A DNA stretch of 32,000 nucleotides from assembly GCA_022843095.1 (NCBI GenBank), contig JALHOH010000001.1:480001-512000 (forward strand), read 5' to 3'. Within the stretch, counting starts at the first letter, position 1; each line of letters begins with the position of its first letter. Made by a program: the position numbers and the translations under genes. The DNA is from Candidatus Saccharimonadota bacterium. Lineage in GTDB: Bacteria; Patescibacteriota; Patescibacteriia; 2-12-FULL-60-25. Positions 3 to 21,274 of this stretch are shown piece after piece. The notes under the pieces were generated by a model that worked only from the letters and a program-made list of their open reading frames with translations, did not search any database and was not told the origin of the DNA.

Positions 3-437
3 ACGGGAGGCGCGCTCCGGGCGGCGGAGTCGGTGATCGTGAGCGATCGGTTTTTGGTGATCAACGGGGATGATGTATATGCCGCGGAAGATTTGCAGGC
101 GCTTGTTCGTTGCCATCGGGGATTGATCGCCGCGAAACAGGTACTCCCGCGTCCTCTGGATACGTGGGAAGTGCGAGATGGCGCCGCGTTACGCATGACC
201 AAGGCGGTGCCAACGGGTGCGGAAGGGTGGGTCAATACGGGGGCCTATCTCCTGGGAAAAGACTGGTTTTTGACAACGCCGGTTTTGACCCCAGGAAAAA
301 CAGATGAGTACAGCTTGCCGCACGCGCTTCCCGAACTCATGGCGAACACGCGTTTCGAGGTCATTCCGGCAACGCGGTGGATGATGTGTGGCACCCCAGA
401 AGAATTGGCGGCGTGTACCCGAGCGTTGGCATCGTAA
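3..437 (+). CDS. Sugar-phosphate nucleotidyltransferase, C-terminal part (5' end lies upstream of the window)
   Basis: The frame of listed ORF 33..437 stays open back to base 3, so the GTG at 33 is probably internal. The translation ...VIVSDRFLVINGDDVY...WVNTGAYLL...WMMCGTPEEL fits the NTP_transferase fold (NGDD motif). Stop TAA at 435-437. Confidence 0.6.
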   Translation, partial: TGGALRAAESVIVSDRFLVINGDDVYAAEDLQALVRCHRGLIAAKQVLPRPLDTWEVRDGAALRMTKAVPTGAEGWVNTGAYLLGKDWFLTTPVLTPGKTDEYSLPHALPELMANTRFEVIPATRWMMCGTPEELAACTRALAS

Positions 438-467: not shown

Positions 468-503
468 GCTTCTGCGCAGGTTTTTGCGTATTGGAGGATG
501 GTG

Positions 504-1577
504 ATGAAAACCAGGGGATGGGGAGTGTGTGTGTTGGGTGTGATCTCTATCGGATGTTCGCTTGGGCATCCGGGTCCGAGCGCGCGCTTTTTGCCGGATG
601 CATCCGATGACCGTCGCGCCGATACATCGGTGATCCAGGATGCTGCGCCGGAAACGGCGTTGGATATCCTGCCGAGCCAGGAAGTGGTCATGTCTCGCCC
701 CGATGAAGGGGGAGAGGTGTCGGACGGCATGCTCGACGCGTGGGATGGGGGAGATGCGCTGGATGACCCCATCGTCGCGGAAGATGCAGGAATGATCGAG
801 CCGGATGTCGTGCCGGATCAGGCGCCGCCGGACGAAGCGCTGCCGGATGTGTTGATTGCGCCGATGGATGTGGCAGATATTTCGGACGTCTTCATGATGG
901 ACCAGGGTCCGGAACCGGTTCCGGATGTGATCGTCATGGATCTGGTGGATCGACCGGATGTCCCGGATCAGATGATGGTGCCGGATCGAGTGGCGCCACC
1001 GGATGTTCCGCCTCCGCCTGATGTGCGGCCACCTCTGGATATCCAGCCTCCACCAGATGTCCAACCTCCACCGGACATTCAGCCACCCCCAGATATCCAG
1101 CCGCCCCCTGACGTACAGGTGCCGATGGATGTCGTGCCGGATGAACCTCCGCCCGACGTCCCGCCCCCGCTCGTCACGGCTCCCATCGTGGTCGAGTACG
1201 CCCATGTCGATCCGCGCTATCCGGGTCGTGATGTTCCATCCTTCGCCGACTACTGGTGGCGGGTGGAATACACGATGCCTGTGGTACGAGTCGAAGACTG
1301 GCGTCGTGGAAGGTGCATGGGAGGGATCGTCATGATCTCTGCCACCACCTCTCGCTGTACGCTGGATGTGCCCGTTCCAGATGGAACGACCATCAAGTTC
1401 TATCCCGTCTTCGGCGGAGACGTTCCGGTCTGCCCGCGCGGTGCTTCGTGCCCCGTGGGCTACATGGAACGCTACACTGTTCGCTACGGGATGCGTTCCT
1501 ACGACAACCGACGGTTGACGCTCGACTTCGAGTTCGTCCCGACGGAACGGCAGTTCGTGTTCTTGCGGGTGCCGTAG
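504..1577 (+). CDS. Predicted secreted lipoprotein, paralog A: acidic Pro/Asp/Val-rich tail plus conserved four-Cys C-terminal domain of unknown family
   Basis: Lies within ORF 438..1577. GGAGG at 493-497 sits 6 nt before ATG 504. N-terminus MKTRGWGVCVLGVISIGC-SLG is a signal h-region ending in Cys. A ~200-aa PDV/PPPD[IV]Q low-complexity tail follows. The C-terminal 138 aa are identical to paralog B and about 80% identical to paralog C. A hairpin terminator follows the gene. Confidence 0.8.
   Translation: MKTRGWGVCVLGVISIGCSLGHPGPSARFLPDASDDRRADTSVIQDAAPETALDILPSQEVVMSRPDEGGEVSDGMLDAWDGGDALDDPIVAEDAGMIEPDVVPDQAPPDEALPDVLIAPMDVADISDVFMMDQGPEPVPDVIVMDLVDRPDVPDQMMVPDRVAPPDVPPPPDVRPPLDIQPPPDVQPPPDIQPPPDIQPPPDVQVPMDVVPDEPPPDVPPPLVTAPIVVEYAHVDPRYPGRDVPSFADYWWRVEYTMPVVRVEDWRRGRCMGGIVMISATTSRCTLDVPVPDGTTIKFYPVFGGDVPVCPRGASCPVGYMERYTVRYGMRSYDNRRLTLDFEFVPTERQFVFLRVP
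1011..1118 (+). repeat. In-frame tandem array, 6 x 18 bp, encoding PPPD[VI][RQ] hexapeptides
   Basis: Codon-by-codon reading gives PPPDVR, PPLDIQ, PPPDVQ, PPPDIQ, PPPDIQ, PPPDVQ. The units use different synonymous Pro/Asp/Ile/Val/Gln codons, so the peptide repeat is better conserved than the DNA repeat. Confidence 0.9.
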
Positions 1578-1579
1578 CC
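1147..1579 (+). repeat. Dispersed direct repeat, copy 1 (433 bp; 419 bp perfect from 1161)
   Basis: Base-by-base comparison with 2751..3183 at a constant offset of 1604. There is a single C/T difference at 1160/2764 and no indels. The repeat covers the C-terminal domain, the stop codon and 2 nt beyond. Confidence 0.95.
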
Positions 1580-1585
1580 AAACCA

Positions 1586-1616
1586 CCCCCGCCCGGGTTC
1601 TCTGGGCGGGGTTTTG
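1586..1616 (+). terminator. Rho-independent terminator after paralog A
   Basis: Stem CCCCGCCC (1587-1594) pairs with GGGCGGGG (1604-1611), followed by TTTT (1612-1615). Confidence 0.75.
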
Positions 1617-1750
1617 CGTTGCAAAGAATCGGCGCGGTATCATGGTCGTATATGCCACAACGCGCAACGGCGCAGCAACACGGATTCTTGCTTGGCAAAA
1701 CCATTTTTCGCGGCGCAAATCAAAAACAAATTGAACGGCGTATTTTTGGA

Positions 1751-2299
1751 ATGGATCAAAAAAAATTGACCGGCGCGCTGCAAAAACGGGGATTAGAAAA
1801 AGTGTCCACAAAAGAGGTGGTGGATGTGCTAACCGGAAAATCGCGCACGGGACTAAAAGCGCGGGACATGGCTCGGGTGGTGCAGGCGTTCCAGGATTTG
1901 GGCGTGGCTACCGATCGCGAGGGGGCGAGTACCTTGGTGATGCGCGCAGGTAGAACGGCACAGGGAATGGAGAATGGTGTGACGCTAAAGGACACATTGA
2001 CCGAGGGACAGTTTAAGCGGCGCATGCGGGATCTGGCGGTCGAACGGCGTGCAGAGGCGGATGCAGAGCTTCAAGGAGCTGGCGCAGAACGGCTTGGCGT
2101 ACGTGAACGGATGCGACAGGCGCTCGGACGGGCGCCTTCCGACATGCCGGGGCTTGGGACCCAAGGGCAATCAGAAGGCGCGGCCATCCGCTCGATTCGA
2201 GATCAATTACGCGAACAGCTTTCACTTCGGCCGACGTTTACCGTTCCAAAGCCACCTCCTGGAGTGATGCCTCCTGGGAGGACCCCATTTTCACCCTAA
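1751..2299 (+). CDS. Hypothetical protein, charged, no signal peptide
   Basis: This is the 3' part of ORF 1256..2299. The upstream part of that ORF overlaps paralog A out of frame and its terminator. First plausible ATGs are 1652 and 1751 (MDQKKLTGALQKRGLEK...). It is rich in K/R/E/A with a Pro-rich C-terminus. I recognise no family, and the start is uncertain. Confidence 0.5.
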   Translation: MDQKKLTGALQKRGLEKVSTKEVVDVLTGKSRTGLKARDMARVVQAFQDLGVATDREGASTLVMRAGRTAQGMENGVTLKDTLTEGQFKRRMRDLAVERRAEADAELQGAGAERLGVRERMRQALGRAPSDMPGLGTQGQSEGAAIRSIRDQLREQLSLRPTFTVPKPPPGVMPPGRTPFSP

Positions 2300-2310
2300 C
2301 GGGAAGCGGA

Positions 2311-2339
2311 TTGACAAAACGCAATTTTTTTGCTAGTTT
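2311..2339 (+). promoter_or_regulatory. Sigma70-type promoter for paralog B (extended -10)
   Basis: TTGACA (2311-2316), 17-nt spacer ending in TGc, then TAGTTT (2334-2339). It lies about 55 nt upstream of ATG 2396. Confidence 0.5.
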
Positions 2340-2395
2340 TTCTCGTTCTTTTCTGTCCTTTTACACTACACACAACCCAAACCGGTGGAGGTTTC

Positions 2396-3181
2396 ATGGG
2401 AAAAATTTTGGTCGTGCTGGCGCTGTTTTTCGTCGGATGTTCCCTTCCGCACGCCTTCATTCGGCGCATGCCGGATGGGACGATGGTGGAGGTGGACGGC
2501 GTGTCCACAGATGAGCCGCTCGCGGATGTCGTCAACGAGTCAGCCTCGGAGGTGATGGATGTGATCGAGGACGTCAGAGAAGATACCTTCGCAGATGCAG
2601 ACGGTTCTGCAGATGTGATGGATGTCGCGTCCCCTGACGCATCCGATGTGCGGGACGTTGTGGCGGAAGAGGCGGCTTCGGACGCGACCCGGGATGTGTC
2701 CGATGCATCCGATGGATCGGACGCTCCGGATGCCTCGGACGCATCGGACGCTCCGCCCGACGTTCCGCCCCCGCTCGTCACGGCTCCCATCGTGGTCGAG
2801 TACGCCCATGTCGATCCGCGCTATCCGGGTCGTGATGTTCCATCCTTCGCCGACTACTGGTGGCGGGTGGAATACACGATGCCTGTGGTACGAGTCGAAG
2901 ACTGGCGTCGTGGAAGGTGCATGGGAGGGATCGTCATGATCTCTGCCACCACCTCTCGCTGTACGCTGGATGTGCCCGTTCCAGATGGAACGACCATCAA
3001 GTTCTATCCCGTCTTCGGCGGAGACGTTCCGGTCTGCCCGCGCGGTGCTTCGTGCCCCGTGGGCTACATGGAACGCTACACTGTTCGCTACGGGATGCGT
3101 TCCTACGACAACCGACGGTTGACGCTCGACTTCGAGTTCGTCCCGACGGAACGGCAGTTCGTGTTCTTGCGGGTGCCGTAG
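2396..3181 (+). CDS. Predicted secreted lipoprotein, paralog B: acidic DASD/DVxD tail plus conserved four-Cys C-terminal domain
   Basis: Lies within ORF 2330..3181. GGAGG at 2386-2390 precedes ATG 2396. N-terminus MGKILVVLALFFVGC-SLP is lipobox-like. An Asp/Ala/Ser/Val-rich tail of ~108 aa follows. The C-terminal 138 aa are identical to paralog A at nucleotide level. Confidence 0.85.
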   Translation: MGKILVVLALFFVGCSLPHAFIRRMPDGTMVEVDGVSTDEPLADVVNESASEVMDVIEDVREDTFADADGSADVMDVASPDASDVRDVVAEEAASDATRDVSDASDGSDAPDASDASDAPPDVPPPLVTAPIVVEYAHVDPRYPGRDVPSFADYWWRVEYTMPVVRVEDWRRGRCMGGIVMISATTSRCTLDVPVPDGTTIKFYPVFGGDVPVCPRGASCPVGYMERYTVRYGMRSYDNRRLTLDFEFVPTERQFVFLRVP

Positions 3182-3183
3182 CC
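2751..3183 (+). repeat. Dispersed direct repeat, copy 2
   Basis: Matches 1147..1579 with one mismatch, and is perfect over 2765..3183. Confidence 0.95.
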
Positions 3184-3213
3184 CGCATCACTCAGGCGAG
3201 AACTCTTCGCCGG

Positions 3214-3238
3214 CCGTGGCATTGCTGCCACGGTTTTT
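3214..3238 (+). terminator. Rho-independent terminator after paralog B
   Basis: Stem CCGTGGC (3214-3220) pairs with GCCACGG (3227-3233), followed by TTTTT (3234-3238). Confidence 0.7.
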
Positions 3239-3268
3239 CTATGGTAAGCGAAAAGGACGGAGGTCGTG

Positions 3269-4183
3269 ATGGTGCAGGAACTATGGAAACGGAGTGCAGC
3301 GCGAACGCTCGCGCTCCTCAGTCTGATGTTGGCACACTGTTCGTTGATTCTGGAGCCGCGGTATTTCCGCGCGGTACGTCCCGGATCAGACGGTGCGCTC
3401 ATCGACGGTGCGATGGAAGACGGAGCGATGTCTCCTGATGCGTCGGTGGAAGACACGCTTCCGCAGGACGATGCGGTACACGTTGCGGACGGAACCGTCG
3501 ACGTGGACGCGATGATCGAGAGCGATGTTGTCTTCGATGGGTCGCTCACAGAGGCGGGCGATACACTCGATGCGACGGATGCGATCGATGGGGGCGATGC
3601 CTTGGATGTCACGCATCCTCTGGATGTGGTCGACGTTCGGGACGGGTCGTCTCTGGATGCGATGGACGCATCGGATGTGTCGCGTCCCGATGCGATGCGT
3701 GATGCGGATGTCATGACAGACGCGGTCACGAACGCAGATGTGCGCGACGTGCTGATCGACGTCCAGCCGGACGCCGCTCTCGGACTCCCGGTCGTGATCG
3801 ATTTCACGCATGTCGATCCGCGCTATCCGGGTCGTGATGTTCCGTCCTTCGCCGACTACTGGTGGCGGGTGGAATACACGATGCCCGTGGCACGCGTCGA
3901 AGACTGGCGCACGGGCCGATGCCGCGGCGGGATCGTCATGATTTCCGCATCGGTCTCGCGCTGTACGCTGGATGTGCCCGTTCCAGATGGAACGACCATC
4001 AAGTTCTACCCCGTCTTTGGGGGGAATATCCCGGTCTGTCCGCGAGGAATGCCCTGTCCAACCGGGTTCATGGAGCGGTTCATTGTCCGGTACGGCGCGG
4101 CGGCGTATGACCACCGCGCACTCACCCTGGACTTCGAATTCGTTCCGCTCGAGCGGCAATTCATTTTCCGCCGGTTCCCGTAA
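3269..4183 (+). CDS. Predicted secreted (lipo)protein, paralog C: acidic D[AV]xD tail plus diverged copy of the four-Cys C-terminal domain
   Basis: Lies within ORF 3266..4183. GGAGG at 3259-3263 sits 5 nt before ATG 3269. N-terminus MVQELWKRSAARTLALLSLMLAHC-SLI has a Cys at the end of the h-region, with an atypical His at -1. The acidic tail is ~150 aa. The C-terminal domain aligns to A/B without gaps, and all four Cys are conserved. Confidence 0.8.
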   Translation: MVQELWKRSAARTLALLSLMLAHCSLILEPRYFRAVRPGSDGALIDGAMEDGAMSPDASVEDTLPQDDAVHVADGTVDVDAMIESDVVFDGSLTEAGDTLDATDAIDGGDALDVTHPLDVVDVRDGSSLDAMDASDVSRPDAMRDADVMTDAVTNADVRDVLIDVQPDAALGLPVVIDFTHVDPRYPGRDVPSFADYWWRVEYTMPVARVEDWRTGRCRGGIVMISASVSRCTLDVPVPDGTTIKFYPVFGGNIPVCPRGMPCPTGFMERFIVRYGAAAYDHRALTLDFEFVPLERQFIFRRFP

Positions 4184-4187
4184 ACCC

Positions 4188-4220
4188 AAACCGCCCCGGG
4201 GCTCCAGGGCGGTTTTTTTT
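4188..4220 (+). terminator. Rho-independent terminator after paralog C
   Basis: Stem AAACCGCCC (4188-4196) pairs with GGGCGGTTT (4207-4215), running into a T8 tract ending at 4220. Confidence 0.8.
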
Positions 4221-4382: not shown

Positions 4383-5129
4383 ATGAGCAAGATGCCCGTA
4401 TTGGCCGACCTGCTGCAGGCAGGCGTCCACTTTGGTCACCAGACGTCCCGTTGGCACCCACGGATGAAGAAATTCATCTTTGGCAACCGCCGCGGGATTC
4501 ACATCATCAACTTGGAAGCGACGCAAAAGGCGCTTGAAGAAGCCACGGCGTACGCGAAGAAAGTGACGTTGCGTGGCGGCGTGATCCTCTTTGTGGGGAC
4601 CAAGAAGCAGGCGGCAACGATCGTCGAAACGGCGGCAAAATCCTGTGGAATGCCGTACGTGACGAAGCGGTGGTTGGGAGGGACGCTCACGAACTTCGCG
4701 AGCATCGCCCAGCAGATCCGCAAGCTGAAGGACATGAAGCGCCGGATGGAAAAAGGGGAGTACGCAAAGTACACCAAATTCGAACAGCTCAAACTCAACG
4801 AAGAGTTGCAGATTTTGGAAGAGAAGATCGGAGGCATCCAGGAATTGACCCGCATCCCGGACGCGATCTTTATCATGGATATTCGCAAGGATAAGACGGC
4901 GTTGCAGGAAGCACAGAAGCGCGGCGTGAAGACGCTCGCCGTGTGTGACTCGAACGTGGATCCGTCCGACGTGGACTATCCGATTCCGGCCAACGACGAC
5001 GCCGTGAAGGCGATCGAATTGGTGGCGACGACCATGGCAAATGCGATCAAAGACGGTCGCGAGGAATGGGAACGCAACCGCGCCCGTTTGGGTGGCGCGC
5101 TCGTGACCCCGCAGCCGGCGCAGAAATAA
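4383..5129 (+). CDS. rpsB: 30S ribosomal protein S2
   Basis: Translation MSKMPVLADLLQAGVHFGHQTSRWHPRMKKFIFG...IINLEAT... is a typical S2 N-terminus. AAGGAG at 4368-4373 precedes the ATG. tsf lies immediately downstream, the classic rpsB-tsf pair. Confidence 0.95.
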   Translation: MSKMPVLADLLQAGVHFGHQTSRWHPRMKKFIFGNRRGIHIINLEATQKALEEATAYAKKVTLRGGVILFVGTKKQAATIVETAAKSCGMPYVTKRWLGGTLTNFASIAQQIRKLKDMKRRMEKGEYAKYTKFEQLKLNEELQILEEKIGGIQELTRIPDAIFIMDIRKDKTALQEAQKRGVKTLAVCDSNVDPSDVDYPIPANDDAVKAIELVATTMANAIKDGREEWERNRARLGGALVTPQPAQK

Positions 5130-5788: not shown

Positions 5789-5818
5789 AAACACCGCCTA
5801 CAAGGGCGGTGTTTGTTT
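5789..5818 (+). terminator. Rho-independent terminator after tsf
   Basis: Stem AAACACCGCC (5789-5798) pairs with GGCGGTGTTT (5805-5814), followed by GTTT. Confidence 0.75.
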
Positions 5819-5845
5819 ACGCGATTCCTTCACGACGCGTATACT
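5816..5845 (+). promoter_or_regulatory. Candidate promoter for gap, -10 box only 8 nt from the ATG
   Basis: TTTACG (5816-5821), 18-nt spacer, TATACT (5840-5845), then TCCGCCAT and ATG 5854. No SD is visible. The 12-mer GTATACTTCCGC is shared with the pgk upstream region. Confidence 0.45.
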
Positions 5846-5853
5846 TCCGCCAT

Positions 5854-6867
5854 ATGCCTACGATTGCCATCAACGGATTCGGTCGCATTGGCCGAAATGT
5901 CTTTAAAGCCGGGCTCGAAAAAACAGGGTTCAACGTGGTTGCGATCAATGATTTGACGGACACGGCGACGCTTGCGCATCTCCTGAAACACGACACGATG
6001 TATCGTCGGTTTGAGCATAAAGTCAGTCATGATGAACAGCATTTGATTGTGGATGGAAAAAAGATTCGCGTCTTTGCAGAAAAGGATCCGTCCGCGTTGC
6101 CTTGGGGGAAGCTCAAGGTGGATATTGTTCTTGAATGTACGGGACGGTTTACGGATGTAGAGGGTGCCTCCAAGCACATTGCGGCTGGGGCAAAGCGCGT
6201 GATCATTTCGGCGCCGGCAAAAGGGGGAGACGTGCCCACGCATGTGATTGGCGTGAATGAAAAAGGGGCCGGACGCGAGGCGGAGGTGATCAACAATGCA
6301 AGTTGCACCACAAATTGCATCACGCCTGTCATCGCCGTGCTGCAATCCGCTTTGGGAATCAAGAAGGCGATGATGACGACGATTCATGCCTACACGGCGG
6401 ATCAGAATCTCCAGGATGGCCCACACAAAGATCTTCGTCGTGCACGCGCCGCGGCCGAGAACATCGTCCCGACCACGACCGGGGCGGCGATTGCGACAAC
6501 GGAAGTGATTCCAGAATTGCGTGGTGTGTTTGATGGGCTGTCGATTCGTGTTCCGGTGCCGGTGACGTCGTTGTCGGATTTTACGATTCTGTTGAAAAAG
6601 AAAACGACGGCGGAAGAGGTGAATGAGTTGTTCCGCAAAGCGGCCAAATCCGCGCTTTGGAAGGGGGTGCTGGAAGTGACGGATGAACCGCTTGTCTCCT
6701 CCGATTTTATTGGGAATTCAGCATCGTGTATCGTGGATTTGGGGCTGACCAAGGTGGTCGACGGGGATTTTTTGAAAGTGATCGCCTGGTACGACAATGA
6801 ATGGGGGTATTCGCATCGCTTGGCAGAGATGGCGTTGCATGTGGCAAAGCAAATGCGCGTGAAATAA
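5854..6867 (+). CDS. gap: Glyceraldehyde-3-phosphate dehydrogenase, type I
   Basis: MPTIAINGFGRIGRNVF is the NAD-binding N-terminus and NASCTTNC is the catalytic Cys motif. The C-terminus is WYDNEWGYS. The upstream extension of ORF 5809.. runs through the tsf terminator and is rejected. Confidence 0.95.
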   Translation: MPTIAINGFGRIGRNVFKAGLEKTGFNVVAINDLTDTATLAHLLKHDTMYRRFEHKVSHDEQHLIVDGKKIRVFAEKDPSALPWGKLKVDIVLECTGRFTDVEGASKHIAAGAKRVIISAPAKGGDVPTHVIGVNEKGAGREAEVINNASCTTNCITPVIAVLQSALGIKKAMMTTIHAYTADQNLQDGPHKDLRRARAAAENIVPTTTGAAIATTEVIPELRGVFDGLSIRVPVPVTSLSDFTILLKKKTTAEEVNELFRKAAKSALWKGVLEVTDEPLVSSDFIGNSASCIVDLGLTKVVDGDFLKVIAWYDNEWGYSHRLAEMALHVAKQMRVK

Positions 6868-6869
6868 CC

Positions 6870-7787
6870 ATGGCGCGGCATCTGGTGCATGACCCGTGGG
6901 AACACCCATTTTTGGAATGGGTGTTTTGGGGATTGCTTGGCTCCGCCGTTTCGATTCTCGCGATTGGATTACTGCTTGGATGGATGCCGCTTGTCGTGTT
7001 TGGGGGGATAGCGACAGGGATCGGGGTGTGGGCGGGATTTTTGGAGCCTGCGCGGATCACGGTCGCACGATACCGTGAGCCGTTGGTTCCGCATCCGACG
7101 ACATGGCTCCGCATCGTATTTTTGTCCGATCTTCACGCGGGGTTGTACAAGCGTGCCCCGTATTATGCCCGGGTCGCAAAACAGGTTCAGGCGCTTGCGC
7201 CCGAGATCGTGATCGTTGGGGGTGACCTTGTGGATGTGGAGGCGCGTGCGGTGCAGGATTTGGAGGCGATTTTACGCATTCCCGCGCCACGGGGACGATT
7301 CTTTATCCTTGGAAACCATGATTATCTGGATGACCCGGCCGCTTTGCGTGCGGTGTTTCGAGATGCAGGATGGACCTCTTTAGAAACGGGTCCGGTGATC
7401 GTGGAAAAAGAAGGATCGCGCTGCGAATTCGTGGCGATGGCAGATCCGCAGCGTAGTCGGCCAAGTGCGCTTCCCGCTCGTATTCCCGGTGTCGCGCGTG
7501 TTCTTGTGTTGCATGAACCAGATAACGCCTTTGATGTTATGGAGCAGGACGCGGATCTTGCGATGACTGGCCATACGCATGGCGGACAGGTCCGGATGCC
7601 GGGGGTGGGCGCGTTACTGATCCCGCAGGTTCTTCCAAAGACATTTGATCGTGGGCGAAAAATGTGGCGGGATACGCCTCTTCTGATCGGGCAGGGAATC
7701 GGGGAATCGGGGGTTCGGGCACGGTTTTTGTGTCCACCGCAAATCGTGGTGATCGAGGTTGGTATCGGCGAATCCACGACCGCATGA
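6870..7787 (+). CDS. Membrane-anchored metallophosphoesterase (calcineurin-like)
   Basis: Starts MARHLV... at ATG 6870, within ORF 6801..7787. Two N-terminal hydrophobic helices are present. Motifs are LSDLHAG, GGDLVD, GNHD, LHEP and GHTHGGQ. Confidence 0.8.
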   Translation: MARHLVHDPWEHPFLEWVFWGLLGSAVSILAIGLLLGWMPLVVFGGIATGIGVWAGFLEPARITVARYREPLVPHPTTWLRIVFLSDLHAGLYKRAPYYARVAKQVQALAPEIVIVGGDLVDVEARAVQDLEAILRIPAPRGRFFILGNHDYLDDPAALRAVFRDAGWTSLETGPVIVEKEGSRCEFVAMADPQRSRPSALPARIPGVARVLVLHEPDNAFDVMEQDADLAMTGHTHGGQVRMPGVGALLIPQVLPKTFDRGRKMWRDTPLLIGQGIGESGVRARFLCPPQIVVIEVGIGESTTA

Positions 7788-7790
7788 TCG

Positions 7791-7799
7791 TGGTATACT
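7791..7799 (+). promoter_or_regulatory. Candidate extended -10 element for pgk, 6 nt from the ATG
   Basis: TGgTATACT (7791-7799), then TCCGCT and ATG 7806. No SD is present. The -35 is weak (AATCCA, 7771-7776). Confidence 0.35.
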
Positions 7800-7805
7800 T
7801 CCGCT

Positions 7806-8999
7806 ATGACGTTAAAAACGCTTCCGAGCACGTTGTCTCTACGTGGCAAGCGCGTGCTTTTGCGCCTGGATTGGAACATTCCTCTTCATGGCGGGCTGCT
7901 TCCTGAGGAATCGCTCAAGATCGAGCGTTCGTTGCCGACCATCGCGATGCTTCGAAAGCGGGGGGCGATCGTGCTCATTTGCACCCATCTTGGACGCCCA
8001 GAGGCGCGAGATCCAGTCTTTAGCACCGAACGATTGTTGCCGTTGCTTGCGCATCAGTATGGATTGCATCCGACTTGGCTCTCCGGACGCATCTCGGACA
8101 AAAAAGAACGCGGATTGATCTGCACCGCGCTTGAAGAGGCGAGTCCGGGGGATCTGTTTTTGCTCGAAAATGTGCGGTTTGAACCCAAGGAAGAAGCGCA
8201 GGACCGTGCCTTGGCAAAGGCGTATGCGGAATGCGCGGATCTGTTTGTGAACGACGCGTTTGCCTCGTGTCACCGAGCGCATGTGTCGGTTGTGGGTGTG
8301 GCGAAGGTGTTGCCTGCGTTTGCCGGTCCAGAACTCGCCAAGGAAGTATTCGCGCTTTCTTCGCTCCTTAAACCAAAAAAACCCTGCGTTGCCGTGGTGG
8401 GAGGGTTAAAATTATCTACCAAAATTCCGGTGATCAAAGCGCTTTTACCCGTCTGTGATGCCGTCTTGATTGGTGGGGCGATGGCGGCGACGATTGCAAA
8501 GGCGCGATCGTATCCGGTGGGCACAACGCCGGTCGAGATGGGGCTTGCAAAAGAGGTAGCAGTACTCGCAAAAAGTACAAAGGTGCATCTTCCGGAGGAT
8601 GTGTTGGTTGCAACGACGCGGTCGACGGCGAGACGTCCACGGCTCGTGGATGCGCGACAGGTCGAGAAGCAGGAGATGATTGTCGATGTCGGTCCGCGGA
8701 CGCTTCGTGGCTGGGCAAAGCTGCTCTCTAAAGCGAAAACGATGATTTGGAACGGGCCGCTTGGCATTGTGGAGATCGAGGCGTGCGGGGCCGGGACGCG
8801 GTTTATGGCGCGCACGATCGGTCGGATGGCGAAGGGATCGGCGTTTGGCGTGGTGGGCGGAGGAGATACGCTTCCTGTCCTCCTTCAGACCAAAACGCTC
8901 CCTTGGTTTGACCATGTTTCTATGGGTGGTGGCGCAATGCTGGATTTCTTGGCGGAAAAGGGAACGTTGCCCGGCCTTGTTCCATTGATGAAAAAATAA
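7806..8999 (+). CDS. pgk: Phosphoglycerate kinase
   Basis: 397 aa. Motifs include ...KRVLLRLDWNIPL..., ENVRFEPKEE, FVNDAFASCHRAH and GGGDT. Confidence 0.95.
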   Translation: MTLKTLPSTLSLRGKRVLLRLDWNIPLHGGLLPEESLKIERSLPTIAMLRKRGAIVLICTHLGRPEARDPVFSTERLLPLLAHQYGLHPTWLSGRISDKKERGLICTALEEASPGDLFLLENVRFEPKEEAQDRALAKAYAECADLFVNDAFASCHRAHVSVVGVAKVLPAFAGPELAKEVFALSSLLKPKKPCVAVVGGLKLSTKIPVIKALLPVCDAVLIGGAMAATIAKARSYPVGTTPVEMGLAKEVAVLAKSTKVHLPEDVLVATTRSTARRPRLVDARQVEKQEMIVDVGPRTLRGWAKLLSKAKTMIWNGPLGIVEIEACGAGTRFMARTIGRMAKGSAFGVVGGGDTLPVLLQTKTLPWFDHVSMGGGAMLDFLAEKGTLPGLVPLMKK

Positions 9000-9008
9000 C
9001 CTCTCAGT

Positions 9009-9275
9009 ATGCCTGAATCCACGCAAGAGCAGTTGAATCTTCGTTTGAAAGTGTTGGAACGGACCGGCGAATTGGTCACCGCAGCGTTTGGTCTTGTCGC
9101 AGCACTGGCATGGAACGACGCGATCCAGACGTTGTTCAAGCAGGTATTTGGAGAAGCGGCGTCCTTGTACGCGAAGTTTTTTTACGCGATTGTTGTCACG
9201 ATCATCGTGGTAAGTGTCACCGTGCGCCTTTCTTCTGCTCAGCGCGCATTGGAACAGAAGATTGCAAAGCGGTAA
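9009..9275 (+). CDS. Small membrane protein (resembles DUF5654-type proteins)
   Basis: 88 aa, with ...AAFGLVAALAWNDAIQTLF... and a second hydrophobic helix FFYAIVVTIIVVSVTV. The family name is recalled from memory and has not been searched. Confidence 0.55.
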   Translation: MPESTQEQLNLRLKVLERTGELVTAAFGLVAALAWNDAIQTLFKQVFGEAASLYAKFFYAIVVTIIVVSVTVRLSSAQRALEQKIAKR

Positions 9276-9306
9276 GATGGGGGCATATGCCCTCATCTTC
9301 TTTTTG
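9274..9306 (+). terminator. Possible hairpin / weak terminator
   Basis: AAGATGGGGGCAT pairs with ATGCCCTCATCTT (one mismatch), followed by CTTTTT. The hairpin contains the ATG (9287) of the next gene, so it may instead modulate translation. Confidence 0.35.
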
Positions 9307-10075
9307 GCCAAATTGGCGTGAGAATCCCACCGCGTCCCTGTTTGTGGCGTTGCTTGGGGTTGCTGGTGCAGCACTTTTAATCGCGCAAACGCGGAATACC
9401 ATCGCGGAATACGACCAGATTGGACGCCCGGATACGGTGCGCGACACGATCACGATTGATGGGGAAGGAAAGGTTTCTGGTGCGCCGGATGTCGCTCAAT
9501 TTTCGGTCGGCTATCGTTCGGAAGGGCGAGATATCTCGACGGTGCAAACCGAAAACACGCGCAAAGTGAACGCCATTTTGGCAGAAATGAAGAAGCTCGG
9601 TATTCCTGACAAAGATTTGCAGACCACCAATTATTCCATCCAGCCGGAATACGATTGGAACAACGGTCGTCAGCAGTTTCGTGCGTATGTCGTGAATCAA
9701 ACGGTGACCGTGAAGGTGCGAGATTTTTCTAAGTTGGACGCCGCCGTGGGGAAGATCGGCCAGTTGGACGCGAATCAATTCTACGGATTAGATTTTACCC
9801 TGGATGACCCAGCGAAGATGAAGCAGGAGGCGCGCAAAAAAGCACTGGAAGATGCACGTCGCAAGGCCGAAGAACTCGCGGATGCGTTGGGGATTCGGCT
9901 GGGTCGGGTGGTGACCTATTCCGAAGGCGGCGGTGGGTATCCGGTGCCGATGTACTACAAAGCAGAGGCGCGCGACATGGCGGTTTCGGCGCCGGCGGCT
10001 GCACCAATGCCAGAAATTCAGGCAGGGGAATTAGACATCCGTTCAAACGTGAGTGTCACGTTTGAGGTGAAGTAG
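9287..10075 (+). CDS. SIMPL / DUF541 domain protein with N-terminal membrane anchor
   Basis: Lies within ORF 9110..10075, whose 5' part overlaps the previous gene. From ATG 9287 it reads MPSSSFWPNWRENPTASLFVALLGVAGAALLIAQ (TM segment). It continues ...ITIDGEGKVSGAPDVAQFSVG...LQTTNYSIQPEYDW...FRAYVVNQTVTVKVRD...EARKKALEDARRKAEELA..., typical of SIMPL proteins. Confidence 0.75.
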   Translation: MPSSSFWPNWRENPTASLFVALLGVAGAALLIAQTRNTIAEYDQIGRPDTVRDTITIDGEGKVSGAPDVAQFSVGYRSEGRDISTVQTENTRKVNAILAEMKKLGIPDKDLQTTNYSIQPEYDWNNGRQQFRAYVVNQTVTVKVRDFSKLDAAVGKIGQLDANQFYGLDFTLDDPAKMKQEARKKALEDARRKAEELADALGIRLGRVVTYSEGGGGYPVPMYYKAEARDMAVSAPAAAPMPEIQAGELDIRSNVSVTFEVK

Positions 10076-10079
10076 CGCT

Positions 10080-11342
10080 ATGTTCGGAGGAAACAAGATC
10101 GCGTCCATTCGTGCCCGTGAGGTGCTTGATTCTCGTGGGAATCCAACGGTGGCCGCACGGGTTGTATTAGGAAATGGGATCACAGCAGAAGCCAAGGTGC
10201 CGAGTGGCGCATCAACGGGGTCACATGAGGCGTTGGAGTTGCGCGACGGGGAAAAGCGGTATGGGGGAAAGGGCGTTCGAAAAGCGGTTGGACACATCGA
10301 GCGCACCATCGCCCCCGCGCTGAAAGGGATGGGGATCGGGGAGCAGCAGGATTTGGATGCGCAGATGTTGGAGTTGGACGGCACAGAAAACAAGTCAATG
10401 CTTGGAGCGAATGCGCTTCTTGCCGTGTCGCTTGCCTGCGCCGAAACTGCGGCGCTAGCTCGCAAGAAGCCGCTTTGGAAGTCCTTGCGTGAAACGTATC
10501 GTTTTCAGCGTGCCGCCGCGCTTCCTGCGCCGACGATGAATGTGTTGAACGGAGGAGCACATGCGGATTGGTCGATCGATGTGCAGGAGTGCATGATCGT
10601 CCCGCGCCAAGCGACATTTTCGGAACGGTTGCGAGCGGGCGTCGAAACGTTTCATGCGCTTGCCAAAGTGTTAAAGAAAGAGGGATTTGCGACGACGGTG
10701 GGCGACGAAGGGGGATTTGCTCCTCGATTACCGCATGTCGAGGCGGCGTTTGAGCTACTGCTTCAGGCGATCAAGCAGGCCGGGTATAAACCGGGAAAAG
10801 AGATCGGCCTCGCAACGGATGTGGCGAGCTCGGAGTTTTACAACGCCAAGACCAAGAAATACGAGATGAAGTCCGAGGGCAAAAAATACTCGGCCAAAGA
10901 ACTCCTCACGCGGTATCAGGCCTGGTTAAAAGACTATCCGCTTGTTTCCATTGAAGATCCGTTTGCGGAAGATGATTGGGAGGCATGGAAAACGGCGCTT
11001 CCATTGCTTGGGAAAAAGGCCTCCGTGGTGGGGGATGACTTTTTTGTCACAAATGTGGCGCGGCTCGAGCGCGGGATCAAAGAAAAAGCGGCGAATGCCA
11101 TTCTGATTAAATTGAACCAGATTGGCACCGTGACCGAAACGGTCGGGGCGATCCAGAAGGCGCATCGTGCCGGCTGGGCGACCAGTATCTCGCATCGTTC
11201 AGGGGAAACAGCCGACACATTCATCGCGGATCTCGCCGTTGCGTGCGGATCGGAGTACATCAAAACCGGAAGTTTGTCGCGCAGTGAACGCGTAGAAAAA
11301 TACAACCGTCTCCTGGAAATCGAGTTAGAAATGGGACGTTGA
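10080..11342 (+). CDS. eno: Enolase
   Basis: 420 aa. The N-terminus is ...IRAREVLDSRGNPTVAARV...VPSGASTGSHEALELRDG... The C-terminal part is ...SHRSGETADTFIADLAVA...IKTGSLSRSERVEKYNRLLEIE. Confidence 0.97.
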   Translation: MFGGNKIASIRAREVLDSRGNPTVAARVVLGNGITAEAKVPSGASTGSHEALELRDGEKRYGGKGVRKAVGHIERTIAPALKGMGIGEQQDLDAQMLELDGTENKSMLGANALLAVSLACAETAALARKKPLWKSLRETYRFQRAAALPAPTMNVLNGGAHADWSIDVQECMIVPRQATFSERLRAGVETFHALAKVLKKEGFATTVGDEGGFAPRLPHVEAAFELLLQAIKQAGYKPGKEIGLATDVASSEFYNAKTKKYEMKSEGKKYSAKELLTRYQAWLKDYPLVSIEDPFAEDDWEAWKTALPLLGKKASVVGDDFFVTNVARLERGIKEKAANAILIKLNQIGTVTETVGAIQKAHRAGWATSISHRSGETADTFIADLAVACGSEYIKTGSLSRSERVEKYNRLLEIELEMGR

Positions 11343-15252: not shown

Positions 15253-15666
15253 ATGTCTTATTGGCTCGTAAAAACAGAACCAGAGGAATATTCCTTTGAT
15301 GCGTTGCTACAAGACCAGGTTGCTTCCTGGGATGGGATCCGGAATTATCAGGCGCGAAACTATCTGAACGAGATGCAGGTTGGAGATCGTGTCGTCGTGT
15401 ATCACAGCGGGGAAGATAAAGAAATTCGTGGGTTCGGAGAAATTGTCCGCGCCGCGTATCCGGATCCAACTGCGGATGGAGGGAATTGGGTCGCGGTTGA
15501 TGTGAAGGCGTTGGTACCGGCCGGTCGTCCGCTTGGATTGGAGGAGATTCGAAACACGCACGGGATCGGCGTCATGCCTCTCGTGACCCAGCCGCGACTT
15601 TCGGTCCATCCGGTGTCCGAAGAGCAGTGGAACGCATTACTGAAATACACAAAAACCACGGTATGA
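15253..15666 (+). CDS. EVE (PUA-like) domain protein
   Basis: 137 aa. Begins MSYWLVKTEPEEYSFDAL......WDGIRNYQARNYLNEMQVGDRVVVYHSG, the typical EVE-domain signature. Confidence 0.8.
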   Translation: MSYWLVKTEPEEYSFDALLQDQVASWDGIRNYQARNYLNEMQVGDRVVVYHSGEDKEIRGFGEIVRAAYPDPTADGGNWVAVDVKALVPAGRPLGLEEIRNTHGIGVMPLVTQPRLSVHPVSEEQWNALLKYTKTTV

Positions 15667-16448
15667 TTCGCGAAGCGGTCATTTTGGCGGGAGGAGAAGG
15701 GACGCGTCTGCGTCCGGTGACCTATGAGATTCCAAAGCCACTCGTTCCGGTCCAGGGGCGACCTATTTTGACGTGGCTGGTGCGTTGGTTTGCGCGTGCA
15801 GGGGTCACGCGTGTACGTGTAATCGCCCCTCGTAAATGGGAGACCGTTTTTTTTGACTGGCAACGGACGCTTTCGCAAACCATCGGATTGGAGAATCCGC
15901 CACGCGTGGATATTTGGGTCGAGCCCGAGGCGATGGGAACGATGGGAGCGCTGGTGCACGAACTCGCCTCTTCGCTCGGGGACGAGCCGCTCTTTGTCTC
16001 GAATGGCGATGAATTAAAGGGGTTGGATTTGCAGACACTTGCGTCCGCACATCGAGTGGCAAAAGGACGCGCTCCAAACCTGCTGGGCACATTGGCGTTA
16101 CGAGAGGTTCCAAATCCTTCCGCCTATGGCGTGGCCGAAATGGAGGGGGAGTTTATCCGGGCGTTTCATGAAAAACCGGCAAATCCGCCTTCGAATTTGG
16201 TAAATGCCGGGTTGTATGTCATTGAGCCCGTGGCGTTTCGACAGGTGAATTCGGATGCGCGCATGTTGATGTTCGAAAAAGATCTCTTTCCGCACGCTGC
16301 TGCGTCAGGTGCCTTGGCCGGGTGTGCCTTGGAGGGGCCATGGTTTGATTGTGGGACGCTGGAGCGCTGGGAGGCGGCGATTCATGGATGGAAAGAGCCT
16401 GAATTTGCACAAAAACCGACCCTCGACGCGGATCAAAAAACGGGCTAA
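15663..16448 (+). CDS. Sugar-phosphate nucleotidyltransferase
   Basis: Starts MIREAVILAGGEGTRLRPVTYEIPKPLVPV (the G-x-G-T-R-x motif). ATG 15663 overlaps the EVE stop codon (ATGA). The track ORF start at 15627 is rejected. Confidence 0.85.
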   Translation: MIREAVILAGGEGTRLRPVTYEIPKPLVPVQGRPILTWLVRWFARAGVTRVRVIAPRKWETVFFDWQRTLSQTIGLENPPRVDIWVEPEAMGTMGALVHELASSLGDEPLFVSNGDELKGLDLQTLASAHRVAKGRAPNLLGTLALREVPNPSAYGVAEMEGEFIRAFHEKPANPPSNLVNAGLYVIEPVAFRQVNSDARMLMFEKDLFPHAAASGALAGCALEGPWFDCGTLERWEAAIHGWKEPEFAQKPTLDADQKTG

Positions 16449-16457: not shown

Positions 16458-17063
16458 ATGCCGCTTTCTTTTAAAGAGGTGGAGCAGGTGACGCAAACGC
16501 CGAATGCACGGGGAAAATTAATCGCATTCGTGTTTGAGTTAGTCCAGGTGCTCGCCATCTCGCTCGCCATCATTTTGCCGGTTCGGTATTTTTTGGTGCA
16601 GCCGTTTATCGTCAAAGGGGAGTCCATGGTGCCCAACTTTTACGATAAAGAGTACCTGATCATCGATGAGCTTTCCTACCGATTCCATCCGCCGGTTCGC
16701 GGAGAAATCGTGGTCTTTCGTTACCCCGAAGATCCCAGTCAGTCCTTCATTAAACGGGTCATTGGTTTGCCTGGGGAAACCGTGGAGGTCGCTTCCGGTC
16801 GGGTGAAGATCTACAACGATGAGCAGCCCAACGGATTTGTCTTGGACGAAGAATCCTATCTGGGTGAGCAGGCGACGATGGGGACGCGTACATTGACCTT
16901 GCAGGAGGATGAATACTTTGTCCTCGGAGATAATCGAGGAGGAAGCCTGGATTCTCGGTTTTTCGGTCCTGTGAAAAAGTCACTCATCATTGGTCGTGTT
17001 TGGGTTCGAGGGTTTCCGTTTGATCGCTGGAAGAAGTTTGAGCCGCCAACCTACTCCAATTAA
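16458..17063 (+). CDS. lepB: Signal peptidase I
   Basis: N-terminal TM segment, catalytic GESMVPN, IKRVIGLPGE, and the GDNRGGSLDSR box. Confidence 0.92.
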   Translation: MPLSFKEVEQVTQTPNARGKLIAFVFELVQVLAISLAIILPVRYFLVQPFIVKGESMVPNFYDKEYLIIDELSYRFHPPVRGEIVVFRYPEDPSQSFIKRVIGLPGETVEVASGRVKIYNDEQPNGFVLDEESYLGEQATMGTRTLTLQEDEYFVLGDNRGGSLDSRFFGPVKKSLIIGRVWVRGFPFDRWKKFEPPTYSN

Positions 17064-19366: not shown

Positions 19367-21274
19367 ATGCTTGAGAAAGGTTCCGTCATCGCAGCCGTGA
19401 GCCAGCGCATCCTTCGTTGGATGCTTTTGGCGATGGCTGCGTTTGCGTTTTGCGCCGTCCTGACGGATACGGCCTATGCCCAGGCTCTGACCGGGCAGCA
19501 AAACGTCGCGGAAATCGCCCAGGCCGCAGGGGTCGAGGCGAATGCGGATCTCCCGACCGTGATCGGCCGCATTATTTATATCTTTCTCGGGTTGCTTGGG
19601 GTCATTTTGTTGGGAATTTTGTTATACGCAGGCTATTTGTGGATGACGGCCGGAGGGAATGGCGACCAAATTGAAGATGCGAAAAAATACATCCGAAATG
19701 CCGTCATCGGATTGATCATTATCGCCTCGTCGTTTGCCATCACCTCGTTTATTTTGAGCATGCTCGCGGATGCCACGGGGGCGGGCGGAATCGGTGGAGC
19801 GGGAGGGGGCGCCTCCGGCGGAACCTTTCCGGGTCGCGCGGGTTCGCTTGGAGCCGGGGTCATTGAATCCCATGTGCCAGCGCCGAATGCCACCAATGTG
19901 GCACGCAATACCAGCATTATCGTGACGTTTAAGGTGCCGATGCAGGTGGACACCTTGATCCAAGGATGGACCGAGGCGACGTCGAACACCGCGAACGGAT
20001 TGAATGCAACGAACATCCGGATTTATCCGACCGGAGCGGCAGCGCAAGCGTTGCAGACCGCGCAGGTGCGCGTTCGCATGACGGAAGATCGTCGCACGTT
20101 CGTGTTTAAGCCCGTGGAACTGTTGGGTAGCGCTTCGCAGAACACGGATTATACGGTCGAGTTGTTGTCCGGGATTCGTCGGGCCGATGGACGCGCAGCC
20201 TTTACGGGCTCCTTTTCGAGCGGCTATCGATGGCAGTTTCAGGTCTCCACGGTCACGGATACGACGCCACCGAAGGTGGAATCTGTGGTCCCGGTGTCCG
20301 GACAGTATGCGCCCAACATTGTCGTTCAGGTGAACTTTAACGAGCCGGTTGATCCGACGAGTGCGAGCGGATTGTATCGACCGCCGGGTGCAAGTTTTCC
20401 GAACATCCAGGTTTCTTCGGTACCGATTTCAACGCCGGGTGCCGCGCCATCACGTCCCGCTGGAGAATTTAAGCTGTCGAACCAGTATCGCACCGTCGAA
20501 TTCGTGACCGAGTCGCCGTGCACCTCGCCCGTCAACTCCTGCGGTCAGCAAATCTTTTGCCTTCCATCGAATGCGTCGATTACGACCTTGCTTCGCGCTG
20601 CGACGCTGTCGACGAATCCGCCGGAAGCCGTGTTCACCGGTTCGGGGTACGATGGGATTGTGGACTTGGCCGGAAACTCATTGGATGGAAACGGAGACAA
20701 TGTCGCTCAGGGACAAGGGCGCGACGACCGTTCATTCACCTTTGGCACGTCGGATCGTCCAAACCTGGATGCGCCAAAAATCATCGGGACAACTCCGCAA
20801 GCGGGCGTTTCAGCGCAAACAAATAACGTGAGTCCAGATGTACGAATTTCTGCAACGTTTGATTCAATTCTGCGTTCGTCTACGGTGCATTCCGATTCGG
20901 TATATCTCACGCGTCAAAATGAGCGTTCTGGTGATGATTCGTTTTGGTGGTCCTCCAGCGTTGAAACGCTGAGCGCAGCACTTGGGGCACCGTCTGCTGC
21001 AAATCCGCCCGCGCGTGGCCGTCTTACGGTCAATCATCGCGTGTTTGAGCGATGGACGGATCCACGAGCACCTGCACCGATCTACGCGCCACACGTACTC
21101 TCTTCAGTCCAGAATATTTACCAGAACTGTTTTGTACCAGCAGGCGCTGTTGATCTTGCTGATCCGAATAATCCGGCAAATCCGTTGAATTGTTCCGCAA
21201 ATAGCACCAATCCGAATTGTTGTGATAACCGCGCGCAAGGGGCGAGCTGTCCTTTCCGCGCTCCCGCTCCATGA
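19367..21274 (+). CDS. Surface protein: signal peptide, TrbC/VirB2-like pilin hairpin, Gly-rich linker, then SbsA-type Ig-like (Big_5-like) modules
   Basis: Signal peptide ...AFCAVLTDTAYA-Q. TM1 is IIYIFLGLLGVILLGILLYAGY, the loop is LWMTAGGNGDQIEDAKKYIRNA, and TM2 is VIGLIIIASSFAITSFILSML. A GAGGIGGAGGGASGG linker follows. Repeated P..A.NV..N..I.V.F..P(M/V)-type modules follow. Its stop overlaps the next ATG (ATGA at 21271-21274). Confidence 0.8.
   Translation: MLEKGSVIAAVSQRILRWMLLAMAAFAFCAVLTDTAYAQALTGQQNVAEIAQAAGVEANADLPTVIGRIIYIFLGLLGVILLGILLYAGYLWMTAGGNGDQIEDAKKYIRNAVIGLIIIASSFAITSFILSMLADATGAGGIGGAGGGASGGTFPGRAGSLGAGVIESHVPAPNATNVARNTSIIVTFKVPMQVDTLIQGWTEATSNTANGLNATNIRIYPTGAAAQALQTAQVRVRMTEDRRTFVFKPVELLGSASQNTDYTVELLSGIRRADGRAAFTGSFSSGYRWQFQVSTVTDTTPPKVESVVPVSGQYAPNIVVQVNFNEPVDPTSASGLYRPPGASFPNIQVSSVPISTPGAAPSRPAGEFKLSNQYRTVEFVTESPCTSPVNSCGQQIFCLPSNASITTLLRAATLSTNPPEAVFTGSGYDGIVDLAGNSLDGNGDNVAQGQGRDDRSFTFGTSDRPNLDAPKIIGTTPQAGVSAQTNNVSPDVRISATFDSILRSSTVHSDSVYLTRQNERSGDDSFWWSSSVETLSAALGAPSAANPPARGRLTVNHRVFERWTDPRAPAPIYAPHVLSSVQNIYQNCFVPAGAVDLADPNNPANPLNCSANSTNPNCCDNRAQGASCPFRAPAP
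19547..19768 (+). other. TrbC/VirB2-like two-helix pilin-type domain (copy 1)
   Basis: Two hydrophobic helices flank the LWMTAGGN loop. By eye it is roughly 55-60% identical in protein to 21418..21639. Confidence 0.65.

Follow-up and report, generated by a model that had tools for sequence, protein, structure and literature searches.

What do three neighbouring genes do when their products end in the same domain and yet differ in length and sequence throughout the long acidic segments that precede it? The question is raised by the beginning of a 32-kb stretch of contig JALHOH010000001.1 (positions 480,001 to 512,000; this whole stretch is referred to below as the window), in which genes A, B and C lie upstream of rpsB, with an orphan gene, mid, between A and B (Table 1). 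An earlier sequence-only reading described the products of A, B and C as paralogous predicted lipoproteins with a conserved domain and rapidly diversifying tails, and proposed that they might be surface antigens, decoys or metal-binding matrix proteins. The explanation that we favour, with modest confidence, is an envelope protein package composed of anchor, stalk and head: a protein that would be exported, anchored at its N-terminus, extended by an acidic spacer and tipped by a binding head, with the heads of the paralogues evolving in concert.

Architecture of the three gene products

The genes were taken from a six-frame list of open reading frames (ORFs) in the window. The ORF of gene A opens already at TTG 438, and the ATG codons at 504, 2396 and 3269 are the best starts of the three genes. 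Each gene has its own GGAGG ribosome-binding site (RBS) at a measured distance of a few nucleotides from the ATG, and its own terminator-like hairpin and T-tract after the stop codon. These hairpins are G+C-rich, with folding z-scores of -2.1 to -2.8 against shuffled sequences; two of the three were picked up by a pattern scan. It is established that A, B and C each form a separate transcription and translation unit, in agreement with the sequence-only reading, which had placed three same-strand genes with individual RBSs and terminators in this region. No fourth lipoprotein copy was detected in the window with the family profile.

The regions following A (1578..1616) and C (4184..4220) share a CCAAACC-CCCC...GGGCGG-T-run layout, while the terminator of B is different. 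The 3' flank of A may come from a C-like copy, although the coding 3' end of A is identical to that of B; the stretch concerned is very short.

All three N-termini consist of basic residues and a hydrophobic run, followed by Cys-Ser-Leu (SIGC-SL in A, FVGC-SL in B, and LAHC-SL in C). The lipobox was tested with PROSITE PS51257, [LIVMFWSTAG]2-[LIVMFYSTAGCQ]-[AGS]-C, in about the first 35 residues and after a basic n-region and a hydrophobic h-region. This pattern is matched by A (VCVLGVISIGC) and B (LVVLALFFVGC). The motif G-C-[SAV]-L after the hydrophobic region is conserved in members from other genomes.

The anchor region is followed by the acidic tail, a long Asp-rich segment of low complexity. 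The tails of A, B, and C carry net charges of -39, -25, and -29, respectively, contain 24-29% Asp plus Glu and up to 22% Pro, and have a pI of about 4. Beyond the segment next to the lipobox, the alignment between copies is weak at best, just as the sequence-only reading had reported. The tail of A includes about six PPPD[IV]Q units (996-1139) and degenerate repeat units of 18/36 nt; that of B includes imperfect repeats of 9/18/27 nt (2699-2755) and DAS/DAP triplets.

The C-terminal module of ~135 amino acids (aa) is conserved in all three copies, as had been noted before. It is 100% identical between A and B and 78% identical between A and C, and contains four invariant Cys. One Trp and all four Cys are invariant in eight non-redundant members, comprising the heads of B and C and of proteins P0003, P0004, and P0005, a set enlarged by members from contigs L001, L033, and L034. 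The four Cys probably form two disulfides, an idea that fits their invariance. Between A and C, the overall dS of the head is about 0.9 and dN/dS is 0.15-0.21; judged by these values, the head is under purifying selection. This order of parts, an N-terminal signal, an acidic tail, and a conserved head, is solid.

Searches for a known family to which the head could belong gave no confident hit. The full-length proteins had no match in Pfam at E<=1, and six diverse domain members searched at E<=10 returned only zf_CCCH_4, for one member and with E=0.4. Matches of the head in NCBIfam were chance matches only, and the best values obtained against PDB sequences were E=1 (phmmer) and E=0.24 (hmmsearch). 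An AlphaFold2 model of the head calculated from 5 sequences (pLDDT 70.4, pTM 0.70) displays nine beta-strands and no helix; the model obtained from two window sequences only was uninformative (pLDDT 40). Foldseek searches with the AlphaFold model gave best values of E=0.13 (PDB) and E=0.055 (BFVD), thus none with E<0.05, and TM<0.4. The top matches, all of them non-significant, were assorted C2, Ig-like, and other beta-sandwiches. On the basis of this model, the head is probably an all-beta domain, presumably a sandwich, of an undescribed family. The sequence-only reading had not recognised the domain and had suggested these profile and structure searches; its impression of an unrecognised family is borne out by them.

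Relatives were reached via rpsB, via the neighbouring gene mid, and via HMMER, by which 1.84 billion 50%-identity representatives were searched exhaustively with a 2-sequence profile. The latter retrieved six proteins, namely B, C, P0003 (E=4.7e-12), P0004 and P0005 (about 3e-7), and P0006, and the only credible non-self relatives among these representatives are P0003, P0004, and P0005. P0006 (1955 aa, Big_5/SWM_repeat) was rejected as an artefact: its E-value of 5e-6 is summed from 6 weak stretches, and it is undetected by the 8-member profile. Also, no reproducible profile match assigns the head to the bacterial Ig-like domains (Big_5/SWM_repeat). A word-indexed search of 5.8 billion clusters with domain A and with a 6-member profile gave no match, but B, C, and P0003-P0005 are inside this collection; the search is insensitive for these sequences, and no conclusion is drawn from its negative outcome. 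Scanning GTDB genomes and JGI metagenomes for the domain pattern revealed no confirmed relative. In the literature, we found nothing on the head-domain family, and a paper on Saccharibacteria and TLR2 does not mention lipoproteins of the Candidate Phyla Radiation (CPR). The products of B, C, and mid are on record from one NCBI contig, each as a singleton cluster among about 15 billion proteins.

Table 1. Features of the window, with positions counted from its first nucleotide
Feature	Position	Strand	Remarks
Gene A, 357 aa	504..1577	+	Signal peptide and lipobox ISIG|C (Cys18 codon 555-557), 199-aa Asp/Pro-rich tail, beta-domain 1155-1574
Gene B, 261 aa	2396..3181	+	Lipobox FFVG|C (Cys15 codon 2438-2440), 106-aa Asp/Ala/Ser/Val tail, beta-domain 2759-3178; identical to P0002
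Gene C, 304 aa	3269..4183	+	Signal/anchor with degenerate lipobox LAH|C (Cys24 codon 3338-3340), 140-aa acidic tail, beta-domain 3761-4180; identical to P0001
GGAGG RBS of gene A	493..497	+	6 nt upstream of ATG 504, read directly
GGAGG RBS of gene B	2387..2391	+	4 nt upstream of ATG 2396, read directly
GGAGG RBS of gene C	3259..3263	+	5 nt upstream of ATG 3269, read directly
Terminator-like hairpin and T-tract 3' of A	1587..1616	+	-23.9 kcal/mol
Terminator-like hairpin and T-tract 3' of B	3212..3240	+	-17.4 kcal/mol
Terminator-like hairpin and T8 3' of C	4188..4220	+	-18.5 kcal/mol
Gene-conversion or duplication tract, copy 1	1147..1579	+	Identical to 2751..3183 save C/T at 1160
Gene-conversion or duplication tract, copy 2	2751..3183	+	C/T mismatch at 2764
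Sugar-1-phosphate nucleotidyltransferase gene, 3' part	33..437	+	NCBIfam TIGR03992, E=1.4e-9; cut by window start; conserved upstream neighbour
mid, orphan gene, 215 aa	1652..2299	+	Basic product without signal peptide; homologues in L001, L006, L025, L026, L033-L036
rpsB	4383..5129	+	Conserved downstream neighbour; product 79% identical to rpsB product of L001
gap, metallophosphoesterase, pgk, SIMPL/DUF541 protein with N-terminal membrane segment (9110..10075), eno	5809..11342	+	
Second NTP_transferase	15627..16448	+	
Type I signal peptidase (Peptidase_S26)	16458..17063	+	

Ancestry of heads, tails and locus

Genes A and B share a tract of 433 nt with one mismatch, and this identity stops 2 nt past the stop codon. 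Head identities sort by genome: against the values given above for the trio, P0004 and P0005 share 41%, and every cross-genome pair shares 22-39%. The 25 residues after the lipobox Cys behave in the opposite way and group across genomes. Here, C pairs with P0004 (CSLILEPRYFR / CSLTLESRYYR, z=11.3, 0/300 shuffles), A with P0003 (z=4.5), and B with P0005 (FFVGCSLPH / FFWGCVLPH, z=3.6). The tails of C and P0004 are collinear throughout (tail z=4.7), and their identity is about equal to that of the corresponding heads, 34%. These relations are solid. The N-terminus and tail of C are orthologous to those of P0004. At least two paralogues are thus older than the split of these genomes, and homogenisation has since made their heads alike genome by genome.

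In keeping with this, the synonymous changes that separate A from C, counted only in codons with a conserved, degenerate amino acid, are clustered: they affect 11 of 56 codons within domain codons 17-82 versus 24 of 40 within codons 83-140 (Fisher p=8e-5). The longest unchanged run between A and C comprises 16 codons (permutation p=0.012).

When close strains of the relatives are compared, 11 substitutions fall in ~230 tail residues versus 3 in ~260 head residues, so that tails change ~4 times faster. The sole length change among these variants is an insertion of 3 aa (TMD) that distinguishes P0011 and P0012 from P0005, in the PPPPDVV-VMD part of the tail. Such faster change is ordinary for disordered linkers and does not amount to hypervariability. 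The picture of a conserved domain with a rapidly diversifying tail, as drawn in the sequence-only reading, is therefore in need of revision. The faster change of tails between close strains is real, but the high domain identity within this genome is largely the result of gene conversion or recent duplication, and across genomes the domains are about as similar as the tails of C and P0004. The latter two tails, which belong to orthologues, align collinearly.

The gene order around the trio recurs in related contigs, which indicates that the trio is a local expansion and not an abrupt insertion. The window has the order NTP-transferase - A - mid - B - C - rpsB. The corresponding orders are NTP-transferase - mid - lipoprotein (P0003) - rpsB - tsf in L025; NTP-transferase - mid - lipoprotein 1 (P0004) - lipoprotein 2 (P0005) - rpsU - yqeY in L026-L030; prfA - mid - lipoprotein - rpsB in L001; mid - lipoprotein - rpsB - tsf in L033; and mid - lipoprotein - rpsB in L034. 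Lipoprotein genes are lacking in L006 and L036 (prfA - mid - rpsB) and in L003 and L005 (prfA - rpsB). By domain assignment, Ribosomal_S2 is found at the same position in L025 and NTP_transferase at the same position in L025, L026, and L028. Relatives thus possess 0-2 lipoprotein copies, and this window possesses three. Judged from these contigs, the slot mid - lipoprotein - rpsB is ancestral in the lineage, and A is a clean insertion between two genes that lie side by side in L025 and L026. The GC content does not suggest a foreign origin of the trio region (0.59-0.62, compared with 0.51-0.61 elsewhere in the window). The earlier statement that the block sits abruptly between its neighbours, which had left mid unmentioned, is not upheld by these data.

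The orphan gene mid has homologues with 32-48% identity in related contigs, and the same 215-aa product is contained in the protein collection. No match to it was found in Pfam or PDB. The gene is kept even where a lipoprotein gene is missing (L006, L036). The rpsB product shares 79% identity with that of metagenome-assembled genome (MAG) contig CAZFRH010000014 and 73% with those of Candidatus Uhrbacteria MAGs; the remoter matches are all from Parcubacteria/Patescibacteria. By this marker, the host is an Uhrbacteria-like member of the CPR.

Two further contigs carry lipoproteins in the same slot, after prfA or mid and before rpsB (L007, 6405..7856; L008, 7650..8420). These resemble the trio in that their lipobox is canonical or nearly so, that an Asp/Pro/Val/Ala tail is present, and that the C-terminal region contains Cys, but differ in the C-terminal region itself, which is undetected by the family profile (E>1) in both. 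The L007 protein possesses several CGDGxC...C..DC Cys-rich repeats (Myxococcus-type), 28 Cys, and a C-terminal beta region. The C-termini of the L007 and L008 proteins are either extremely diverged or non-homologous replacements. Since similar acidic tails are borne here on undetectably related C-termini, the comparison suggests that the tether is a habit of the lineage and the head an exchangeable part.

Possible function of the trio

In the explanation that we favour, a Sec-type signal peptide would direct the export of the proteins, which would then remain attached to the cytoplasmic membrane on its outer face. A and B would be anchored by lipid modification of the conserved Cys via the lipoprotein pathway, and C perhaps by an uncleaved signal anchor. 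The polyanionic, Pro/Val/Ala-rich disordered segment of 100-200 residues would repel itself, stretch out, and so serve as a spacer that keeps the head away from the membrane and beyond the wall or S-layer. By our own estimate, at ~0.3 nm per residue, it could span 30-60 nm. The all-beta four-Cys module of ~130 residues would be the functional head, most likely a binding module. The DNA encoding this head would be homogenised among the paralogues by gene conversion, with the signal-proximal segments and tails keeping their separate ancestry. The analysis shows the gene structures and the order of parts, the lack of known homologues, the synteny and narrow distribution of the family, and the signature of conversion; that the proteins are lipidated and exposed at the surface, that the tail is a spacer, that disulfides form, and that the head binds something are points that we infer.

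Several observations weigh against this explanation. The Cys-Ser-Leu that had been placed at the end of the signal h-region is indeed present in all three proteins, but the lipobox is canonical in A and B only; that of copy C (LMLAHC, 3326..3340) is degenerate, with His at -1, and is not matched by PS51257. The ortholog P0004 has Gly (PLAG-C) in place of this His. Because His at -1 is incompatible with the known preferences of signal peptidases (SPases) II and I, C may have lost its lipid modification and may be held by an uncleaved signal anchor instead. Several relatives carry unusual Pro or Trp residues at -2 to -4, which makes lipidation less than certain: P0004 (PLAGC), P0005 (FFWGC), and L001 (STPGC) do not match the strict pattern at -2 to -4, while G-C-[SV]-L is kept. 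The window contains a type I signal peptidase only; Lgt and LspA are not in it and were not sought beyond it. The structural model of the head is of moderate confidence and is based on 5 sequences. The clustered synonymous identity between A and C could partly reflect constraint at the nucleotide level and not conversion. Finally, no ligand is indicated, and binding is what one would assume by default of any small, disulfide-bonded beta-domain carried by a stalk.

A variable surface-antigen or decoy family is an unlikely alternative. It would regard the tails as the diversifying exposed part, altered by slippage or recombination and serving to evade phages, predators, or host recognition, and the domain as a scaffold only. 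The occurrence of several paralogues with unalignable tails and short tandem repeats agrees with such a role, as do the excess of tail substitutions and the 3-aa indel between close strains and the evidently active recombination among copies. Yet the tandem repeats identified in the tails with Tandem Repeats Finder are imperfect (67-91% matches, at most 5.2 copies), and neither perfect repeats nor homopolymers, invertible or switch elements, or silent cassettes were seen in the trio genes. Every gene is equipped with an RBS and a terminator of its own; copies are few in each genome (0-3); the tails of C and P0004 are still collinear despite a domain identity of 34%; the strain variants display no length polymorphism beyond 3 aa; and faster change is the norm for disordered linkers.

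Equally improbable, in our view, is a function of the tails themselves as tethered polyanions, which would bind Ca2+, Mg2+, or other metals, or form a charge layer or matrix similar to teichoic acid in a bacterium with reduced synthesis of cell-wall polymers. The tails are extremely negative in charge (-25 to -39), Asp is regularly spaced (D-x-x-D, D-A-S-D, P-P-P-D) in every family member, and the proteins of L007 and L008 display similar acidic tails on unrelated C-termini at the same slot. On the other hand, full-length proteins gave no Pfam match to Ca-binding repeats (TSP type 3, RTX, EF-like) at E<=1, the purifying selection on the head and its invariant Cys and Trp imply that it is not dispensable, and the case for polyanions is one of composition alone. 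The antigen, decoy, and metal-matrix roles offered by the sequence-only reading are in this sense speculation: perfect tandem repeats, a switch element, and a DGR signature (a diversity-generating retroelement, see below) are all missing.

An extension of the anchor, stalk, and head explanation has a slightly smaller chance still of being correct. It would make the four-Cys beta-domain a new fold-level family that serves Uhrbacteria-like episymbionts as a head for recognition of the partner or host; copy number, stalk lengths, and head conversion would tune attachment, and mid would be part of the same function.

It is very unlikely that the A/B tract is an assembly artefact, in which a MAG with fewer true copies was mis-joined or had a repeat collapsed or duplicated. 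Near-perfect repeats of such length are a known cause of mis-assembly in MAGs, and copy A (from ATG 504) is absent from the protein collection, in which B, C, and mid are present. This absence is explicable by a different start-codon call, as the ORF opens at TTG 438. Moreover, the flanks of A, the NTP-transferase gene and mid, are adjacent in relatives, which points to a clean insertion and not to a junction of unrelated regions; the tail, RBS, and terminator of A are found in no other copy; the mismatch at 1160 within the tract argues against a simple copy-paste error; and the contig on record is 683,555 bp long.

Many CPR genomes contain diversity-generating retroelements (DGRs), whose targets are C-terminal regions of surface proteins, and a repeated DNA tract is present here. 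That the trio is a target of a DGR or of other programmed hypermutation is nevertheless effectively refuted, because the copies do not differ preferentially at adenines (most frequent are G/C and C/G changes), the A/B tract is essentially identical and not variable, the variable part is a low-complexity tail and not a lectin-fold variable region, and no ORF resembling a reverse transcriptase (RT) occurs in the window; YxDD strings are found there just twice, once within the metallophosphoesterase ORF and once within an uncharacterised ORF of 467 aa for which RT homology was not tested.

The cumulative GC skew climbs monotonically over the whole length of the window. Two overlapping genes on the plus strand, 19367..21274 (635 aa) and 21271..31257 (3328 aa), each begin with a T4SS_pilin (PF18895, VirB2-like) membrane domain. 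This domain is followed by Big_5 in both products, and the larger one additionally contains TIG, Big_7, and CarboxypepD_reg. A homologous pair of 650 aa and >2000 aa is encoded about 1 kb downstream of the lipoprotein pair in L028-L030. VirB2-like pilins have been discussed for Patescibacteria in a paper in which the word 'giant' does not occur (PMC12102498).

Significance and known counterparts

Envelope proteins that are tethered to the membrane and bear a beta-head on a disordered stalk are of a well-known kind; neither the head domain nor mid has been described, and both are restricted to a handful of Uhrbacteria-like contigs. CPR genomes are rich in orphan envelope proteins, and orphans make up about half of all genes in the phylum. 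Taken alone, the trio is one more orphan envelope protein family, and no surprising mechanism is indicated. CPR bacteria are thought to live attached to other cells and, to our knowledge, almost none of their surface proteins besides type IV pili has a known role. The locus offers a small and well-delimited family (0-3 copies) for testing the surface biology of these bacteria and a clean case of concerted evolution within a tiny genome. It also teaches that a conserved domain with a hypervariable tail, when seen in one genome, can arise by gene conversion, so that orthologues should be checked before variation or an arms race is invoked.

Among known systems, the disordered N-terminal linkers of lipoproteins comprise a lipidated Cys, a disordered segment, and then a folded domain (El Rayes et al., 10.1101/2021.01.05.425367), and the extracytoplasmic disordered regions of RsgI and PBP1 in B. 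subtilis have a positional role in the envelope (PMC9732909). The succession of membrane anchor, disordered segment, and folded domain is common to all of these and to the trio. The tails of the trio are distinguished by their length of 100-200 aa and their charge of -25 to -39; the linkers of E. coli lipoproteins are much shorter. Lipoprotein linkers have their role in the Lol sorting of diderms, whereas a monoderm-like envelope is assumed for Patescibacteria (PMC12102498).

The trio is also comparable to Vlp, Vsa, and Vsp of Mycoplasma and to Arp of Treponema pallidum in its lipoprotein-type N-termini, its charged repetitive regions, its occurrence as a small clustered family in a reduced-genome, host-dependent bacterium, and the change of repeat regions between strains. 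Near-perfect tandem repeats make up most of those proteins, phase or size variation has been documented for them, and they do not end in a conserved folded domain. In contrast, the repeats of the trio are degenerate, and a four-Cys beta-domain under selection stands at the end. Near-perfect repeats or homopolymer tracts, and length variation between strains beyond 3 aa, by which phase- or size-variable lipoproteins are recognised, were not found in the trio and the strain variants of its relatives.

The staphylococcal Clf/Sdr proteins (MSCRAMM) form a multi-paralogue family in which an acidic low-complexity stalk displays a beta-rich ligand-binding head beyond the wall, with the stalk length setting the display. 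Their topology is inverted relative to that of the trio, as they carry a C-terminal LPXTG sortase anchor and the trio an N-terminal lipid or signal anchor. Clf/Sdr proteins also possess true SD dipeptide arrays and DEv-IgG heads recognisable by Pfam, whereas the trio lacks SD arrays and Pfam matches, and its C-termini (...FVFLRVP, ...FIFRRFP) contain neither LPXTG nor a hydrophobic tail. What both have in common is the existence of several paralogues and the same logic of an anchor, an acidic stalk, and a globular beta-head.

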